This document shows, in pieces, positions 54,902 to 62,695 of a stretch of 64,000 nt of DNA. Origin of the DNA: Promethearchaeia archaeon. GTDB taxonomy: Archaea > Asgardarchaeota > Lokiarchaeia > Sigyniarchaeales > SOKP01. How positions within the stretch are numbered: position 1 is the stretch's first letter; each line of letters opens with the position of its first letter. Made by a program: the position numbers and the translations under genes. The notes beneath the pieces were generated by a model. It made no database searches. It worked only from the letters and a program-made list of their open reading frames with translations, and was not told where the DNA came from. The stretch spans positions 15,130 through 79,129 of the forward strand of contig JAHQWK010000029.1 of NCBI GenBank assembly GCA_029856145.1, in the 5' to 3' direction.

Positions 54902-55014
54902 TAATATCGCCGTAAAGTATAAAATTTAATATTTGATTAAAATAAATTGTAAAATATCACTAAATATAATTAAACTTTCACATATTTAAAAATAAATTTC
55001 AAAGGATTTTGATT

Positions 55015-55290
55015 ATGCCACAAGTTGGTTATCGAATTGTTGGAACAATAAAAGAAATAAAAGGGCATTGTCATGCAGGTCATAATGTAGGAGATAAAAT
55101 AGAGTTAGATGGACATGACTCAGGAGGATTATGTGGATTCTTTTATCATGACATTTTTCCTTATGTTATCATGCTTCAATTTGGGGGTTCTTTACCTGAT
55201 TCTTGGGGTGAAGATCCGGATATTGTAGAATGGGAATGTCCTGATAGAACTAATGCTGTGAAAATTGAATTAAAACGAATTAGAGATTAA
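55015..55290 (+). CDS. Small Cys-containing protein, TIGR04076-like
   Basis: KGHCHAGHNVGD, GLCG..YH..FPY...LQFGG, ECPD..N.VK.EL.R. Confidence 0.75.
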   Translation: MPQVGYRIVGTIKEIKGHCHAGHNVGDKIELDGHDSGGLCGFFYHDIFPYVIMLQFGGSLPDSWGEDPDIVEWECPDRTNAVKIELKRIRD

Positions 55291-55484: not shown

Positions 55485-56153
55485 ATGAATGATATAATAA
55501 GTAGTAATCATACCCAAAGTCAAGAAGATTTATTTAAAAAGATATTAATAGTATGTCCTGAGTGTAAAAAACAAAAAATATTAAATATTCCTTCAAAAAT
55601 AATAGAACAAAGTCAACACATCACTACAATTAGCATTCCTACTGGATTAGTCTGCGCACACCACTTTCAAGCATTTGTTGATAAGAATTGTGCATTAAGA
55701 GGATATCAGTTAGGAGATTTTGAATTTTCAAAAATAGAATATATTGAAAGCATTGATGTTGAAAATACACAAGAAAGGGATGAGGATATCAGTGAATTTA
55801 CTTCACTACCATTATTTCAAGAGATACTTACTCTTTTAAGAAAAAGTGTAGATGATAGAGAAATATTAGGGTGTGCAATATTTACTTCTAACGGAAAAGT
55901 TATTTATTCATCGATTCCACATAACACCTTACTTAATACAATTAAAGAATTTGAGGTAAGAAACGAGAAAAAGCTTCATAGTATAACAAAAATGTTGCTT
56001 GAATTAAGAAATCAACAAAAGGTTTGTTCAGAATACATTAAAATTCTCGATAAAGAATTTATTTTAGTTATACTGTTTTCAGAAATCGTAAACTTTGCAA
56101 TTGGGAGTATGTATCTAAAAAAAATTGTAAATAAAATGATAAAATTAACTTAA
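55485..56153 (+). CDS. Zn-binding domain + roadblock/profilin-like domain protein
   Basis: CPECK...VCAHHFQAFVDKN..LRGY; C-terminal EILGCAIFTSNGKVIYSS...FILVILFS...AIG.MYLKKIV. Confidence 0.7.
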   Translation: MNDIISSNHTQSQEDLFKKILIVCPECKKQKILNIPSKIIEQSQHITTISIPTGLVCAHHFQAFVDKNCALRGYQLGDFEFSKIEYIESIDVENTQERDEDISEFTSLPLFQEILTLLRKSVDDREILGCAIFTSNGKVIYSSIPHNTLLNTIKEFEVRNEKKLHSITKMLLELRNQQKVCSEYIKILDKEFILVILFSEIVNFAIGSMYLKKIVNKMIKLT

Positions 56154-57028
56154 TTTTTTAAATCAGAAGAAAGATATACTTCTCCTTTACTTAAATATGA
56201 AATTAAATCTGTAAATTCTTGACTATAATTTTCTGAGTTTTGAAGATATCTTAAGACCGATTCATTTTTATTAACATATTTTTTGGATAATTTGGTTGTG
56301 TATGGAACTATTCGAACAATAGAAGGGAATAGGAATAAAGTTAAAATTTCTAATGAGTAATAAAAAAATCTTTCTAAATAAGGATTAATTGTTGAAATAA
56401 TCTTTTCAAAATTTTGATTTGATTTATTTGTTTTAAATGTCAGATATATATTATTTAATTTTTCTACCTTTAATTTACTATAGTAGTATTGAGTTATACT
56501 CTGCTTCTCTAAAATTTTTTGATAAATCTCCTTAAGTTCAGTATTCATAATATTTTCATCACCTAATCTGAGAAAACATGATCTATATTCAGAGTCTCCA
56601 GTCATAATAAGAATTTCTGGAATATCTTCTACTTCCACTGTTTTTAATATTTTTAATAATTCGAGATAGCTTAGAAGTCGGGAATCAAAAATCTCTTCCA
56701 TTGATTTATCATCTTGATTATTTGAGGTATATTCTAAATTCCGTAATAAGAATAGATCTAAGTTTTTAAATTCCTCATTTTCCTCAAAGATTATGCCTAA
56801 TATTCCCTCTTTTTGAGTTCTTCTATCTAGACTTCCAGTATAACACGAAACGCTTTTATAGTGATCAAATTTGATTTCAATTAGATGAGATGATTCAAAG
56901 CTTGCATGTGACATATATAATTTCGATATAAATTCTTGGGGTAATGTAATTGGACTTGTAAAATAAGAACACTTAATTTCCGGACCCCTTATTTCATTGT
57001 GAATTAAAAAAAATATACCTCTTGGCAT
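56150..57028 (-). CDS. Putative longin/uDENN-like domain protein
   Basis: N-terminus GIFFLIHNEIRGPEIKCSYF resembles the hydrophobic-strand-GP start of uDENN/NPRL2-type longins; 14 bp downstream of the Rag-like gene. Confidence 0.55.
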   Translation of the reverse strand: MPRGIFFLIHNEIRGPEIKCSYFTSPITLPQEFISKLYMSHASFESSHLIEIKFDHYKSVSCYTGSLDRRTQKEGILGIIFEENEEFKNLDLFLLRNLEYTSNNQDDKSMEEIFDSRLLSYLELLKILKTVEVEDIPEILIMTGDSEYRSCFLRLGDENIMNTELKEIYQKILEKQSITQYYYSKLKVEKLNNIYLTFKTNKSNQNFEKIISTINPYLERFFYYSLEILTLFLFPSIVRIVPYTTKLSKKYVNKNESVLRYLQNSENYSQEFTDLISYLSKGEVYLSSDLKN

Positions 57029-57042
57029 TATATCCTTACCTC

Positions 57043-58242
57043 TTATTCAACCCATAATTTTCTAAGTTGTTGAGTAACTTCTTGGCCTACGCTTTCTATT
57101 TCCTTTACTAAATTGTTATTCAAAGCCTCTGGTGATAAAATAATTATAAGTATTAAATCTTGATTTACATCAGTTATTAATAAGCTATTTGATTCAGTTT
57201 TTAATTTAAACTCCTTGAATTTTTCAAATTCCATATTCTTTGTTACTTTATCAATAGTAACAATTAATAAAGAAATCATCCCGATAATAACGTCTTCTTC
57301 CATTACATCAATCGTAGATCCACATGCGAGTCCGGAGCTTCTTTCAATTACTAATGAATCTTTGACTCCATGTTGATTTTTTAATTGGTTTAAGATTGAA
57401 TTAATAAATGTACTTTTAGGAGAGAGTTCTCGAATTATATCACTCCACGCTTTAAATAGGGATTCATCAAATATCGATGTTAAGTTATAAAAGATATCAT
57501 ACGATATATTTTTAGAAAGAACATTTTTTATATGTGAAACAACTGAATCTTTGTCATGAATAAGATCTGATTTATGCAAGAAAACATTTAGTTTTGCATT
57601 CGGATTGTGTGAAAGGATTTGATCAACAGCCCATTCAAATTCAATCCTGGAATTCTCAAATCGATCATAATCGGTTATATCAATTACATATAGTAATATT
57701 GAAGCTTTTCTAAAGATATTATCTCTTAAAGGCCCATGATATTCATCAAGGTATTGCTGTTGACCTCCTAGATCCCAAATAACTGGTTTTGACATGGAAC
57801 CAATTTCATAGTCTTTATAGGAAATTCCTTTGGTGGCTGCTTGATGTACTAATTCCCAAGGCTTTTTTCCTTCAAAAACACGTTCATAGATACAAGTTTT
57901 TCCAGCATTCGCGAGCCCCATTAATACAATTTTTTTCATATTGTTTGTTGGAGTTGCCTGAAATTCTTCAAGCATTTCAGAGACGGTACTTTCAACAAAG
58001 GATATATCAGCTCCAGGACTCAAATCTTTTAATTCTTCTTTAACAATTAATTCTAGCCTATTACGAGGAATAGTCAAATTTTTAATTTCAAAAAATTTTT
58101 GTATGTTTTCTATAATTTCTTCTTCTGTTAGTTTTGACTTCTCAAAAATTATCTGATTTCTATACCACATTTTTAGATTAAGTTTATCGTCACTCGTACT
58201 CATAATCCCTATATGATATAATGTACCTGGAATTTTCTTCAT
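57043..58242 (-). CDS. Gtr1/RagA-like GTPase with C-terminal roadblock domain and N-terminal extension
   Basis: KIVLMGLANAGKT, ATKG, WDLGGQ, FLHKSDL, TSIFDESLFKAWSDII, LVIERSSGL. Confidence 0.88.
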   Translation of the reverse strand: MKKIPGTLYHIGIMSTSDDKLNLKMWYRNQIIFEKSKLTEEEIIENIQKFFEIKNLTIPRNRLELIVKEELKDLSPGADISFVESTVSEMLEEFQATPTNNMKKIVLMGLANAGKTCIYERVFEGKKPWELVHQAATKGISYKDYEIGSMSKPVIWDLGGQQQYLDEYHGPLRDNIFRKASILLYVIDITDYDRFENSRIEFEWAVDQILSHNPNAKLNVFLHKSDLIHDKDSVVSHIKNVLSKNISYDIFYNLTSIFDESLFKAWSDIIRELSPKSTFINSILNQLKNQHGVKDSLVIERSSGLACGSTIDVMEEDVIIGMISLLIVTIDKVTKNMEFEKFKEFKLKTESNSLLITDVNQDLILIIILSPEALNNNLVKEIESVGQEVTQQLRKLWVE

Positions 58243-58245
58243 GAT

Positions 58246-61224
58246 TTATTTCCTCTTTTTTTGTTTAATTTTGCTGAATTTAATTACTTTAATTTTTTCT
58301 TTAAATTTGTCTATATTATAGTTTTCTTCTACTCTGCCTAATTGAAGTAGAATGTGAGAAATTTCTTCACAATTTTCATAAAGTTTTACTGCTTCTTTAA
58401 ATAGATTTTGATCGAAATAATATTTAGCTTGTTCTTCCAATTTATTTCGTTTATCCTCTAAATCAGAGATCTTTAGATTTCTATCTTCCACTATTTGAAT
58501 TAACTCATGTTGGTACATTTTCGATGTGTCAACATCTTTTAAATTTTTAATGATTTTAATTAAATCAATATATATTTCCATTACCCTTAAGAAATTATTG
58601 CTACTTTTTTCATATTCCAAATTTTCTAATTTGATTTCGTGTTCTTTGCTCAATCTTTTAATTTCTGCGACTAAATTTGTATAATATGCTGCTTCATCCT
58701 TTTTTCCTATCTTTATAAGATGTTGTTCTGCAAGTTCAAATTGCTTTTGAGCTTCTATATAAGCACCTTCATCAAATAATTCTTCTCCTAATAACTTAAT
58801 TTCATCTAATTGTTTTTCTAAATCAGGTTTTTCAATTAATTCTTCTTTATCTGTTGGCTCCTCGTAAACATTTTCTTTATATTTATCCTTTTCAGACACA
58901 TATTTTGAACTAGCAGAGATTTTGTTGATATGAGTAAGTATCATTTTCAATGGTATCTTCTTTCTAGGAGGATGTATTTTATTGAGAATTCTTTTTCTTA
59001 ATATAACAATTACAGCGACTGAGCCAATTACGCTACCTAATATGTAGGGTAATAAGTCCAAAACTGTAAGTCCATTTCCTCCACCGTTTATCGATAGAAT
59101 ATTAAAAGATCCCATTGTGTAATTGCTTTTTAATCCCGCTCCATCAATTTGAAGTAAAAAATAATAATATGTGCCAGGAGCAAAACTTTCAGTTAATTCT
59201 AAATAACTGCTGATAGAGCCTGTATAGGTAATATTAATGTTGTACATAAATCCTGGGGTTTCATCTGGATCAGATTCATTATCAATAATGAAACTATAGG
59301 ATGAAATACCAGAAAGATCATAACCATCTTCCCAATCAAAAACTAAAGTACTATATGTTCCATTAGTTGGCGCACTAACTATTATAGGGGAATTTGGCGG
59401 TGTAGTATCAACCACATTAATTGAATCACTAACTGAATTCCAAATTCCACAATTATCTTCAATGTGTATTGTATATACATAATTTCCCGTATTAGATGGA
59501 GTCCATGAATCATATTGCCAAATATCACCCAAAATATTTGTCATAGAGTCATTAGTACCCTCAAATTCAATTTTGACTTGTCTAATTCCAGATAAATCAG
59601 TTGCATTAATCGATATAATTTCTGTATCTCCCAATTCTAATGTATTTGAACTTTCAGTTAAGTTTGAGTAAATTGGAGGATCAATATTAAATTTCACCTC
59701 TTGACTAATATTACAAAAAGTTTCAGGATCGTTTTGATTATGATATGAGGTGTTAAATGATTCGGGTATTCTCAAAGTATCTGAAATACGGAGTTCATCG
59801 ATGATTCCGTCAAAATAATCCGTTAACGTCCTCCCTAATTCCAGATTAGTAATATTTATCCCTTCTGTATTAGTTATTACTATATATTGCCAATTTGTAG
59901 ATACCGAAGACTGTTTATTTCCATCTATATAGATAGTTGTTGTATCAGGAAAATTTGTAGTTAATAATTGCCCCTCAACAATTTCAATCCGTGATATACC
60001 GTTTAAATCGGCGATTCTCATAAAATCATAATTATAATAAACCTTAACATATATACAATCAACAGCTAATGTACCAGAGGCATGAGAACTACGTCGTATT
60101 CTTACTCGAAAATTATTGTTATTAAGTTCATCTGATGTCCAGGTGTGCCCCCAATCGTTTGCAGGACCTCCAAATGTCTCATTATTATCACCTGAAACAT
60201 CCCATGGTTTGGACTCTGAGGTGGTATAAGTATTTCCACCGTCCCAAGAAAGTGCAACTAAGCCCTCCGTAGGAGAGGAATATGATGCTTCAATCTCTAG
60301 TTCTATTCCATTAATAGTAGCTCCATTTGGTACATTCAAGGAAAAATTATACCAATCTTGATAAGTATTTTGAGATCCTATTGAATAAGAATCGTTACTT
60401 TCAAAGGCATATTTAGGATTACTCCATTGATCATGGTCATCTCCAGTTGCAGATGGTCTTTTCCAACTCGTTTCAACTGAACCACCACTACCAAGATTAC
60501 TTGGTTTCATCCAAAACTCAATTGTTTTTATCTCCGGTCCTACGTTGCCTATGGCAATAAATTCATTAACTCCTTCAAAATAATTCGAGCTACCAATTTT
60601 TCCATCAAGATTTGAAACCCCCCCGTATTCGGTTCCATCTTTTTGATTGGATGTAGAATCTAGAGCGTCAACTTCAGTCATATGCCAGATTCCTTTATAA
60701 TTATCATCCCATACTTCTGTTGGATTTTCTTGGGAAGATAAATAGGGATTACCGTAATACATTGTAATATTAGTATAGTCAGAAACACGTAATAAAGGAA
60801 TTTGTACCCATGCTATAAGTTGAGCATGAGTTCCATTACCAACTTGATCGAAAAGCTCTATTTCGTGATTTAACCAAGCAGTATCATTAGCAAAGGCAAT
60901 ATCATTACCACTAGATTGAACTTTGGTATGTAAATCTGCGTCATAAATTGAGAAAAGTACTGGAAAATTAGTATAATTACTTGATCCAATGACTTTTGAA
61001 TGGTTAAGAGTAATTATTTTATAGTATTTGAAATTGTATTTACCCGTTGGACCGTTTGTAGATAAATGAATCCCCTTAAATTCATCTAGATTTTGTTCAA
61101 GGTCATAATCCTTTTCAGAATTAAAGCTATTAAAATCATTTAAATTAAATGAAATAAAAAATATTAAACTTAAATTTGTGAGAATTAATAATAAAATTAA
61201 TGAAGTTCTTTTATTCCTTTCCAT
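58246..61224 (-). CDS. Single-pass surface receptor-like protein (DUF2341 + LamG-like + Ig/FN3-like, TM, cytoplasmic helical repeats)
   Basis: Signal anchor; NFPVL...DIAF...WVQIP...MYYGN (DUF2341); GIWHM...FDGIIDELRISD (LamG); VDTTPP, WEDGYDLSGISSY; TM LLPYILGSVIGSVAVIVIL; TPR-like hairpins in the tail. Confidence 0.8.
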   Translation of the reverse strand: MERNKRTSLILLLILTNLSLIFFISFNLNDFNSFNSEKDYDLEQNLDEFKGIHLSTNGPTGKYNFKYYKIITLNHSKVIGSSNYTNFPVLFSIYDADLHTKVQSSGNDIAFANDTAWLNHEIELFDQVGNGTHAQLIAWVQIPLLRVSDYTNITMYYGNPYLSSQENPTEVWDDNYKGIWHMTEVDALDSTSNQKDGTEYGGVSNLDGKIGSSNYFEGVNEFIAIGNVGPEIKTIEFWMKPSNLGSGGSVETSWKRPSATGDDHDQWSNPKYAFESNDSYSIGSQNTYQDWYNFSLNVPNGATINGIELEIEASYSSPTEGLVALSWDGGNTYTTSESKPWDVSGDNNETFGGPANDWGHTWTSDELNNNNFRVRIRRSSHASGTLAVDCIYVKVYYNYDFMRIADLNGISRIEIVEGQLLTTNFPDTTTIYIDGNKQSSVSTNWQYIVITNTEGINITNLELGRTLTDYFDGIIDELRISDTLRIPESFNTSYHNQNDPETFCNISQEVKFNIDPPIYSNLTESSNTLELGDTEIISINATDLSGIRQVKIEFEGTNDSMTNILGDIWQYDSWTPSNTGNYVYTIHIEDNCGIWNSVSDSINVVDTTPPNSPIIVSAPTNGTYSTLVFDWEDGYDLSGISSYSFIIDNESDPDETPGFMYNINITYTGSISSYLELTESFAPGTYYYFLLQIDGAGLKSNYTMGSFNILSINGGGNGLTVLDLLPYILGSVIGSVAVIVILRKRILNKIHPPRKKIPLKMILTHINKISASSKYVSEKDKYKENVYEEPTDKEELIEKPDLEKQLDEIKLLGEELFDEGAYIEAQKQFELAEQHLIKIGKKDEAAYYTNLVAEIKRLSKEHEIKLENLEYEKSSNNFLRVMEIYIDLIKIIKNLKDVDTSKMYQHELIQIVEDRNLKISDLEDKRNKLEEQAKYYFDQNLFKEAVKLYENCEEISHILLQLGRVEENYNIDKFKEKIKVIKFSKIKQKKRK

Positions 61225-61456
61225 AACCCAAATAGTCTCCTAAAAAAATTTTAGCAATCTCTTATACAAAGATATTTAGCATATCTTCTATATTAAGAAA
61301 AGTAATATATTAGTATATGGTATGATAATATTAATTTAGTTATTTAAATATGACATAAACAAGTATCCCTATAGAAATTATAAATAACAATTAATGACCA
61401 ATAGGTTGTTATACTTGTTATAGAATTAGATTTTCAAATAGAGAGAAACATATAAA

Positions 61457-62695
61457 TTAGCCTTTATCAGTCTCAAATTTCTTCACTTCTTCAAACATTT
61501 GCTTTTCCCACATAAAAGTATCTTTCTCTTCTTTGAATTTTAGTTTTTCCGTTTCAAATTTCTGTTTTTCCTTCTCAAAAGCATATTTCTCTTGTCTAAT
61601 TTTATGTTTTCTTTCTTTGATGTTCTTTCTTTCTAATTGAAATAACACTTTTATTTCGTCTAATTTTAATTTGTCCTGATTAAATGCATCAATTTTCTTC
61701 TTGAAATTCGACTCTTTTTCTTCGAGTTCTGATCTGGTTTTGCTTTCAGTTTTGTCAATTTCTGGTTTTACTTTCTCTTTGGTTAGGTTATCGTCTCTGT
61801 CTCTTTCCTTTTTTTTCACTTCTTCAAGCATTTGCTTTTCCCAATTAAATGCTTCTTTTTCTTCTTGAAATTTTTGTACTTTGAGCTCAAATTCTCTCTT
61901 TTCTTCTTCAAATTTTTGCTTCTCTTCCTTCATTCTATCAATTTCTAAAGTTCTAATTCTCTCTTTATGAGTAATTCCATTATTTTTTGCGTTATCATCT
62001 TTTTCAATATGTCCAATAAAGTCCAAATCTCCAAGTTCTTCAGGAACTTTCTCCTTTAACGCAGTTTTATTCAATTTACTTTTTATTAAATTAATGAAAT
62101 TTTCTTCAGTTTTTATTGTCTTAATTAAATTAGCTTCTTTAGCTAAATCTATTATTATTTCTGCAATTTGAATTGCTTCATCAAACTTCTTTTGTGCATA
62201 ATATTCATGCCTCTTTTTTTTTAATTCGGCTATGTGTGTATCAATGGATTGTTTAGGACTAATTTCTGCTTGGATCTGGTCAATAAACCTCTTTTCTTCG
62301 TTTATTATAAGATTCATACCATTAGTTTTCGCAATATCAATGATCTTTTTAGCAACTTCAATTGCTTCAACCTTTTCTCCACTTTCTAAGTAATTTTGTT
62401 TAAACTCCTTTAATTCTTCAATTCTTTTTTTAACTTCACTAATCGCAATTTCTTTCTGTCTAGTTTTCTTTTCGTCTTCTGTTGGTTGACTTTTGATCAA
62501 TCCCCTTCTTATTTTTTCTTCAGTTATCCTAGTTTTTGCCTTGCTAATGTTATCCAGTTTATCTAACATTGAAAGAATACTTTTTTTTTCCGTGTCTTGT
62601 TGAATTTCAACATGCCCTTCAGCTTCTGGGACATTAGATCTTTTCTTCTTTTCCTTCTTATCCTTTTTTTTTGCTTTCTTTAAGTCAGGACTCAC
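61457..62695 (-). CDS. Charged coiled-coil protein with two helical-hairpin repeats and Phe-heptad repeats
   Basis: EAIEVAKKIIDIAK and EAIQIAEIIIDLAK repeats; F(N/M)WEKQM(L/F)EEVKK occurs twice. Confidence 0.7.
   Translation of the reverse strand: MSPDLKKAKKKDKKEKKKRSNVPEAEGHVEIQQDTEKKSILSMLDKLDNISKAKTRITEEKIRRGLIKSQPTEDEKKTRQKEIAISEVKKRIEELKEFKQNYLESGEKVEAIEVAKKIIDIAKTNGMNLIINEEKRFIDQIQAEISPKQSIDTHIAELKKKRHEYYAQKKFDEAIQIAEIIIDLAKEANLIKTIKTEENFINLIKSKLNKTALKEKVPEELGDLDFIGHIEKDDNAKNNGITHKERIRTLEIDRMKEEKQKFEEEKREFELKVQKFQEEKEAFNWEKQMLEEVKKKERDRDDNLTKEKVKPEIDKTESKTRSELEEKESNFKKKIDAFNQDKLKLDEIKVLFQLERKNIKERKHKIRQEKYAFEKEKQKFETEKLKFKEEKDTFMWEKQMFEEVKKFETDKG

Follow-up and report, generated by a model that had tools for sequence, protein, structure and literature searches.

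We analysed a 64,000-nucleotide (nt) stretch of DNA, the window, from Promethearchaeia archaeon (GCA_029856145.1, contig JAHQWK010000029.1, positions 15,130-79,129 of the forward strand), whose assembly comprises 32 contigs and 3.55 Mb at 97% completeness. All coordinates are positions within this window. It carries a cluster of genes predicted to encode a surface receptor (58246-61224, minus strand, 992 aa), a Rag/Gtr1-family GTPase (57043-58242, minus strand, 399 aa), an NPRL2-like longin protein (56150-57028, minus strand, 292 aa) and, convergent with the longin gene, a zinc-roadblock protein (55485-56153, plus strand, 222 aa). Only 3 bp (58243-58245) separate the receptor and GTPase genes and 14 bp (57029-57042) the GTPase and longin genes, and a Shine-Dalgarno-like GAGG, a ribosome-binding motif, stands right before the ATG of both the GTPase and the longin gene. 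A palindromic TTAA at 56150-56153 provides the stop codons of both the longin and the zinc-roadblock gene. These coordinates, gaps and the convergent stop overlap had been given in a first-pass annotation of the same DNA, and our list of open reading frames (ORFs) reproduces all of them. The receptor, GTPase and longin genes are most likely co-transcribed.

Products of the four genes

The GTPase matches the Pfam family Gtr1_RagA (PF04670) with an E-value of 7.8e-42 (143.7 bits, cut-off 22). Its closest solved relatives are yeast Gtr1 and human RagA (E 2e-25 to 4e-21), aligned over residues 103-378, a span that takes in the G domain and the roadblock domain; next in rank are RagC and Gtr2. The protein comprises an extra N-terminal domain (residues 1-100), a G domain (about 101-275) and a roadblock domain (about 283-399), and the match of residues 283-368 to Robl_LC7 (22.6 bits) lies slightly below the cut-off of 23. 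GLxNAGKT, the switch-I threonine T137, WDLGGQ, HKxD and TSI are all invariant in 28 orthologues, so that, judged by its sequence, the GTPase is functional. We assign the product on these matches to the Rag/Gtr1 family with a C-terminal roadblock domain (CRD). The cluster holds a single Rag gene; other Rag-like genes of the genome lie elsewhere and are at most 36% identical to it. Its gene content does not match an arrangement of two different Rag subunits, the obligate CRD heterodimer of the Rag family.

The N-terminal domain of the GTPase (57943-58242, minus strand) begins with an invariant M-x-K-I-P-G and carries a P-x-N-R motif, and both persist in 24-28% identical GTPase homologues of other Loki families (L082-L086), beside which receptor, longin and roadblock genes are missing. 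No Pfam family and no PDB chain matched these first 100 residues, and ESM Atlas feature searches with the GTPase N-terminus and with the zinc-roadblock protein returned unnamed clusters or nothing. The same genome (G000) has 19 places that match the Rag-like GTPase at E<=0.001, several of them open frames of 300-500 aa with 26-29% identity; by these matches the genome holds a large paralogous GTPase set.

The longin protein was modelled with AlphaFold2 from 26 homologues, with a mean predicted local distance difference test score (pLDDT) of 89 and a predicted template-modelling score (pTM) of 0.88. The model has a longin domain (residues 1-129; beta-beta-alpha-beta-beta-beta-alpha), a roadblock-like alpha/beta domain (133-222) and then C-terminal helices. 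In a search independent of Foldseek, the longin domain matched the solved Loki longin 8yqg with a Z-score of 11.4 and chain B of the GATOR1 entry 8fw5 with Z 10.7. That chain (362 residues) is most likely NPRL2, judged by chain order and length, the search naming entries by title only. The same search gave Z 8.7-9.8 against entries of Npr2/3, Lst4, FNIP2, FLCN and SMCR8, and the second domain matched roadblock and third-longin domains with Z 7.3-8.4. In Foldseek the top full-length matches are GATOR1 chains (E 1e-5), followed by chains of Mon1-Ccz1 and Fuzzy-Inturned/CPLANE (E 2e-4 to 1e-3). The nearest named shapes in the ESM Atlas are eukaryotic NPRL2 (PF06218), with template-modelling scores of 0.41-0.44, and then DENND11/Avl9. 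The longin family counts 186 proteins in a 5.8-billion set, none of them named, and its named records come only from Promethearchaeota-type metagenome-assembled genomes (MAGs). PF06218 (NPR2) was not found in the genome itself, and the same search was silent in control genomes too, so this result is uninformative. As modelled, the protein resembles NPRL2 by fold and motif only, not by sequence family.

The receptor has two hydrophobic segments, an N-terminal anchor (residues 8-26) and a transmembrane helix (residues 724-742; 58999-59055, minus strand) with a hydropathy of 2.45 over 19 residues. Between them lies an ectodomain (residues 27-723; 59056-61146, minus strand) whose length and domain content vary among species, and behind the helix a conserved cytoplasmic tail of 250 aa (residues 743-992; 58249-58998, minus strand). 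The ectodomain matches DUF2341 at E 6e-5. Across loci the receptors measure between about 800 and 2131 aa, and the Pfam domains of orthologue ectodomains are DUF2341, Laminin_G_3 (a ConA-like lectin) and Ig-like domains including Big_7; in the most distant genome the ectodomain bears seven FG-GAP repeats. A basic juxtamembrane motif (PPRKKIPLK..SH) opens the tail, and behind it come helical hairpins resembling TPR/MIT, with weak Pfam matches (TPR_2 in 18 of 27 members, MIT in 4). The tail matches the C-termini of 34 receptor ORFs at module loci at 32-63% identity, and a profile built on it extends the match to the FG-GAP receptor of L079 (E 8e-20). The type of ectodomain is exchanged (LamG/Ig versus FG-GAP) and the tail is retained. 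By these features the product is a single-pass surface receptor with a variable ectodomain and a conserved, TPR-like tail.

The model of the zinc-roadblock protein is less confident than that of the longin protein (pLDDT 71.5). Residues 109-222 adopt the roadblock fold in the model (alpha-beta-beta-alpha-beta-beta-beta-alpha) and match MP1-p14 (LAMTOR) with Z 12.8 and a root-mean-square deviation of 2.3 over 106 residues, the Schizosaccharomyces pombe Lam subunit 8fw5_G with Z 11.6, an MK-D1 roadblock protein with Z of about 11 and MglB with Z 10.9-11.0. Residues 17-88 form a beta-rich Cys/His domain in which C24, C27, C57 and H59 are invariant. The modelled product is a zinc domain joined to a LAMTOR-like roadblock. 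We found no lipidation motif in it, and beyond the roadblock core no transmembrane helix is predicted. Most orthologues (about 330-352 aa; L030, L031 and others) have an extra N-terminal coiled coil of about 125 residues, which is missing from the proteins of this genome (222 aa) and its nearest relatives.

The first-pass annotation had described a surface protein with cytoplasmic helical repeats and a lectin-like exterior, a Rag-like GTPase-roadblock, a longin-like product and a zinc-bearing roadblock protein. The transmembrane helix, TPR-like tail and lectin-type ectodomains of the receptor family agree with the first description, the Gtr1_RagA match and the alignment through the roadblock domain with the second, the confident model and its longin and GATOR1 matches with the third, and the Cys/His domain with its MP1-p14-like roadblock with the fourth. 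The label longin/uDENN stands in its first half, with NPRL2 as the nearest shape; uDENN is a weaker shape match, DENND11 coming after NPRL2.

Conservation of the cluster and of the GP motif

We compared 42 loci with homologues of the longin gene, each from a different species representative, scoring neighbours from ORFs. The Rag gene lies directly 5' of the longin gene on the same strand at all 36 of the 36 loci whose flank is long enough, and a receptor gene lies 5' of the Rag gene at 31 of 32. The zinc-roadblock gene is convergent at 34 of 40 loci and stands on the same strand at one more. Most gaps are between -4 and 22 nt. The gap from Rag to longin runs from -62 to 22 nt, that from receptor to Rag is mostly -4 to 75 nt, and the convergent ends mostly fall between -22 and +2 nt. 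The same order at 42 species loci is far beyond chance, and the clustering proposed in the first-pass annotation holds across these species. Since the tail, Rag and longin genes are retained across loci, they make up the conserved core, and the zinc-roadblock gene is often its fourth member.

Identity to the proteins of the window drops to 34% for the longin protein, 49% for the Rag GTPase and 37% for the roadblock protein. The longin gene and the Rag orthologue co-occur, in the identical 12 of 24 genomes of the genus, where the module is thus accessory. G035, a genome from another family, encodes three separate adjacent Rag-longin pairs. Beside the distant GTPase homologues of further Loki families (G032, G038 and others; 27-31% identity), no gene for a receptor tail, a longin or a zinc-roadblock protein could be recognised, and we could not extend the module to them.

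Two observations concern the filing of these loci. One archaeal module (L072) sits on a contig (DATKTP010000069.1) filed as a bacterial MAG, Candidatus Deferrimicrobium, which is probably a binning error. Several MAGs of the same genus among L046-L074 (DZ/H3/QM records) carry NCBI names of Odin-, Hod-, Hermod- and Thorarchaeota.

Two sites of the longin domain stand out. Gly15-Pro16 (the GP motif; codons at 56981-56986, minus strand) and Arg69 (codon at 56822-56824, minus strand), a candidate arginine finger in the loop between strands beta4 and beta5, are invariant in 26 sequences and retained at all 42 species loci. Strand beta2 comprises residues 15-23 of the AlphaFold2 model, so the GP motif opens it. 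By longin topology, the beta4-beta5 loop with Arg69 would lie at the end of the sheet that also bears the beta1-beta2 loop. We take the arginine fingers of NPRL2 and FLCN to sit in the same loop as Arg69. A GP motif that opens the second longin strand, beside the catalytic arginine, has been described for FLCN, NPRL2, SMCR8 and C9orf72, and is absent from FNIP2, NPRL3 and longins that are not GTPase-activating proteins (GAPs) (PMC12290439); in Npr2 an Arg-Asn pair is described (PMC12999518). A class of Asgard longins also bears the motif, and whether the GTPase that it serves is Arf-like or Rag-like was posed as a question (PMC12290439).

Four divergent longin clusters (P0130, P0131, P0134 and P0145) have lost both Pro16 and Arg69, and each of them comes directly after a receptor-tail-domain gene, with the Rag gene absent. 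In four clusters of equal divergence that have retained GP and Arg (P0136, P0139, P0140 and P0141), the longin gene always follows a Rag gene. In a maximum-likelihood tree the four clusters that lost the residues are not one clade; four changes are needed, at least two of which are forced by well-supported branches. Because the loss of GP and Arg coincides with the absence of Rag, both appear tied to the presence of the GTPase. And because longin paralogs stay beside tail genes even without Rag, this pattern suggests that the longin protein may bind both the receptor tail and the GTPase.

GP/Arg-less longin paralogs stand directly after tail-domain genes, with no GTPase gene, at L087, L089, L091 and L092, and at the last of these the longin gene lies between genes for two soluble tail-domain proteins (279 and 301 aa). 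By analogy with NPRL3 or FNIP, such paralogs may be non-catalytic partner subunits.

A proposed receptor-Rag circuit and its alternatives

We favour, with a probability of roughly 0.6, the reading that this cluster forms a signalling module conserved in, and specific to, one lineage, the Promethearchaeia (Loki-type Asgard archaea). We hold it similarly probable that the receptor tail docks the Rag-type GTPase and a longin GAP, with the zinc-roadblock protein as the CRD partner; binding and GAP activity are both predicted here. The TPR-like tail would keep the GTPase and the longin protein at the membrane, the role that the lipidated LAMTOR1/Ego1 anchor has in eukaryotes. The longin protein would act directly on the G domain, most likely as a GAP, with Gly15-Pro16 and Arg69 in the roles that the GP motif and the arginine finger play in NPRL2 and FLCN. 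The zinc-roadblock protein would pair with the roadblock C-terminus of the GTPase in the manner of Ragulator/Ego, or serve as an MglB-like co-regulator, and a ligand at the variable lectin/Ig/FG-GAP ectodomain would shift the GTP/GDP state. We infer the physical link between receptor tail, GTPase and longin protein, and likewise the GAP or GEF (guanine-nucleotide exchange factor) activity. A complex prediction for the GTPase with the longin protein scored 0.00, which carries no weight for or against binding. No match emerged when the alignments of the zinc-roadblock and longin proteins were compared, as profiles, with that of the GTPase, the profiles being shallow.

Several observations weigh against this reading. 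No Pfam or NCBIfam match at E<=1 and no PDB profile match was found for the longin protein, and hence no sequence link to NPRL2/FLCN; an exhaustive search of 1.84 billion representatives with the longin profile returned 35 clusters, all within the family. The longin fold is widespread, and the Atlas template-modelling scores given above lie below 0.5. Eukaryotic GAP longins act as heterodimers with a second longin, and we found none encoded in the module and no longin paralog in the genome. Arg69 is equated with NPRL2 R78 and FLCN R164 by loop position and fold topology in the model, not by superposition, and the co-variation with Rag comprises four clusters. L058 has the Rag, longin and roadblock genes without a receptor; at L078, counted in addition to the 36 loci above, a longin gene with GP and Arg abuts a tail ORF and Rag is absent; and half of the searched genomes of the genus are without the module.

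The fold searches also bear on what the longin protein would do to the GTPase. Instead of a GAP it could be a non-catalytic scaffold or an exchange factor, its longin and roadblock-like domains acting in the manner of the multi-longin Rab GEFs (Mon1-Ccz1, Fuzzy-Inturned, TRAPP, DENN). Mon1-Ccz1 and Fuzzy-Inturned/CPLANE chains are indeed among its Foldseek matches, its second domain resembles roadblock and third-longin domains, DENND11/Avl9 shapes come after NPRL2 in the Atlas, and exchange is the commoner role of longin proteins (PMC12290439). GATOR1 chains, however, outrank the GEFs in the fold searches, and the GP motif, reported to be absent from non-GAP longins (PMC12290439), is here invariant together with Arg69. 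We consider an exchange factor or scaffold rather unlikely.

The nature of the ectodomains raises the possibility that the module works inside-out, with the GTPase set controlling how its own giant adhesin-like surface protein is exported, placed or clustered, for instance on protrusions, and not passing on a signal from it. The ectodomains are of adhesion type (LamG, Ig, FG-GAP) and freely swapped, and Asgard Rab/Rag-like GTPases have been proposed to specify membrane areas or protrusions (Tran et al., PMC10933270). The conserved unit nevertheless encodes no secretion or sorting component, and the direction of signalling is not readable from sequence. We give this reading a low probability, comparable to that of the exchange factor.

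The resemblance of the roadblock domain to MglB (Z as given above) would fit a third arrangement, in which the GAP role falls to the zinc-roadblock protein, on the model of MglB and MglA, and the longin protein is an adaptor joining the GTPase to the receptor tail. That longin paralogs remain beside tail genes even without Rag fits such tail binding. But of all the members the roadblock gene is retained least constantly, 5 of 40 loci with Rag or longin being without it, and the loss of GP and Arg tracks the loss of Rag, which points to the longin domain acting on the G domain. This arrangement seems to us distinctly improbable. That the gene order reflects recent common descent only, its products having no joint function, is very improbable indeed: most loci do come from one genus, half of whose genomes are without the module, but the order persists at 34-49% identity and in another family, Rag-longin pairs duplicate as units, presence and absence agree 12/12, overlapping or near-abutting frames are usual, and the flanking M20 peptidase and TrmO genes are not retained beyond close relatives.

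Within the preferred reading of a tail-docked Rag module, a stronger proposition is that an archaeal plasma-membrane adhesion or lectin receptor directly sets the Rag nucleotide state via two partners, an NPRL2-like arginine-finger GAP docked on its tail and a roadblock protein resembling Ragulator. We put this forward as tentative, at less than even odds. If it is true, the Rag/longin-GAP/roadblock circuit began as outside-in surface signalling that predates lysosomes and TOR, and the longin paralogs without GP and Arg would correspond, in archaea, to the non-catalytic NPRL3/FNIP subunits.

Like the eukaryotic Rag/Gtr proteins, the GTPase fuses a Rag-type G domain to a C-terminal roadblock; unlike them, it is encoded by one gene rather than an A/C pair, and the archaeal protein has the extra N-terminal domain of 100 aa. 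The longin protein, with its GP motif and conserved loop arginine, is comparable to GATOR1 (NPRL2-NPRL3-DEPDC5) and FLCN-FNIP, but there is a single longin protein with no longin heterodimer, no DEPDC5 and no sequence homology to NPRL2/FLCN. As in Ragulator/EGO, there is a separate LAMTOR-like roadblock protein and, as proposed here, a membrane anchor for the set. Unlike in Ragulator, this proposed anchor would be the tail of a plasma-membrane receptor and not the lysosomal, lipidated LAMTOR1, and the TOR kinase is absent.

Bacteria offer further comparisons. In the bacterial MglA-MglB polarity switch a small GTPase and its roadblock regulator are encoded together, and the actinobacterial conservon CvnA-D, long compared to receptor-G-protein coupling, combines a GTPase, a roadblock regulator and a membrane sensor. 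As in both, a small GTPase gene here stands beside a roadblock gene and, as in the conservon, there is also a gene for a putative membrane sensor. Unlike in these systems, the GTPase is Rag-type and not MglA/CvnD-type, and a longin protein and a single-pass adhesin-like receptor are found instead. No histidine-kinase or DUF742 domain was found by Pfam in the module products, unlike in the conservon. MglA-MglB and the conservon are functional analogues, not relatives.

Among Asgard archaea, a conserved operon has been reported that joins genes for a LAMTOR1-like roadblock protein, a DENN protein and a Rab-like GTPase stated not to be of the Rag family (Liu et al., preprint 10.1101/2020.10.19.343400). 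Like that operon, the present neighbourhood unites a small GTPase with roadblock and longin/DENN-type regulators; unlike it, it includes a receptor gene, a Rag/Gtr1-type GTPase and an NPRL2-like longin rather than DENN. The Asgard longins with a GP motif ('Folliculin/SMCR8 longin domain-containing') have been reported mostly from Heimdallarchaeia, as single proteins, and were proposed to be GAP-like (PMC12290439). The longin protein shares with them the longin fold, the GP motif and the arginine, but belongs to a Loki family undetected by Pfam and is encoded in an operon with a Rag GTPase. The solved Loki proteins (8yl2 LokiRagO, 9m28 LokiRagM and 8yqg/8yqk; PMC10933270) show the same GTPase-roadblock architecture and the same folds, although LokiRagO and LokiRagM are only distant paralogs of the GTPase (E 4e-12 and 5e-11). 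In MK-D1, GTPase genes are stated generally to share no operon with roadblock or longin genes (Tran et al., PMC10933270), whereas this Rag family sits in such an operon.

Asgard genomes encode dozens of small GTPases, longins and roadblock proteins, and which regulator goes with which GTPase has been unreadable because the genes are usually unlinked (Tran et al., PMC10933270). For one family, the module answers the question of Arf-like versus Rag-like service (PMC12290439) by genomic linkage: the GP/Arg longin stands one-to-one with a Rag GTPase, and the residues are lost where the GTPase is lost. The module also offers a candidate membrane partner and a roadblock partner, so that the set comprises four proteins, small and either soluble or single-pass, which lend themselves to expression and assay. 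The module is a matched, testable candidate forerunner of the eukaryotic Rag, GATOR and Ragulator machinery, and if the wiring proposed here is true, it would show the logic of that machinery before eukaryotic organelles. We found no description of a receptor/Rag/NPRL2-like operon in the searchable literature, subscription papers being outside this coverage. The kinds of component, Asgard Rag-like GTPases, longins and roadblock proteins, are already known, and NPRL2-like longins have been noted in Thor and a few Loki MAGs.

Flanking genes and upstream sequence

The region of the cluster is AT-rich (25-36% G+C), and its flanking genes, an M20-family peptidase and a TrmO fragment, are housekeeping genes unrelated to it. 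A gene for a coiled-coil protein (61457-62695, minus strand, 412 aa, GTG start) precedes the receptor gene by 232 bp. The first-pass annotation had rightly placed a coiled-coil gene there; membership in the unit did not hold up, a homologue being present at only 2 of 42 loci (L042 and L043, close relatives). Its product is a Lys/Glu-rich coiled coil in which a segment of about 25 residues (EEK..F.WEKQM.EEVKK pattern) occurs twice, and no family match was found for it. On the other side, an ORF of 93 aa (55009-55290, plus strand) adjoins the zinc-roadblock gene; it is present in the closest relatives only, at 76-86% identity, and its product has no family match that we could find. Comparison ruled out that it is a detached N-terminus of the longer zinc-roadblock forms.

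No RNA data set was listed as containing this DNA. In two runs tagged as metatranscriptomic, and flagged as probably DNA, there are short contigs identical to parts of the receptor and GTPase genes, one of which spans the receptor/GTPase junction at 58001-58280. Such contigs cannot show a transcript, and we did not use them as evidence of expression. A scan with sigma-70 and terminator models stayed at or below the level of shuffled sequence, and these models carry no meaning for an archaeon. The AT-rich 232 bp 5' of the receptor gene (61225-61456, minus strand), with GGAG 12 nt before the ATG, are likely the promoter region of the three-gene unit. Within this putative promoter, contigs from two sediment metagenome runs differ by single bases at 61320 (G>A) and 61330 (A>G), which is probably strain variation.

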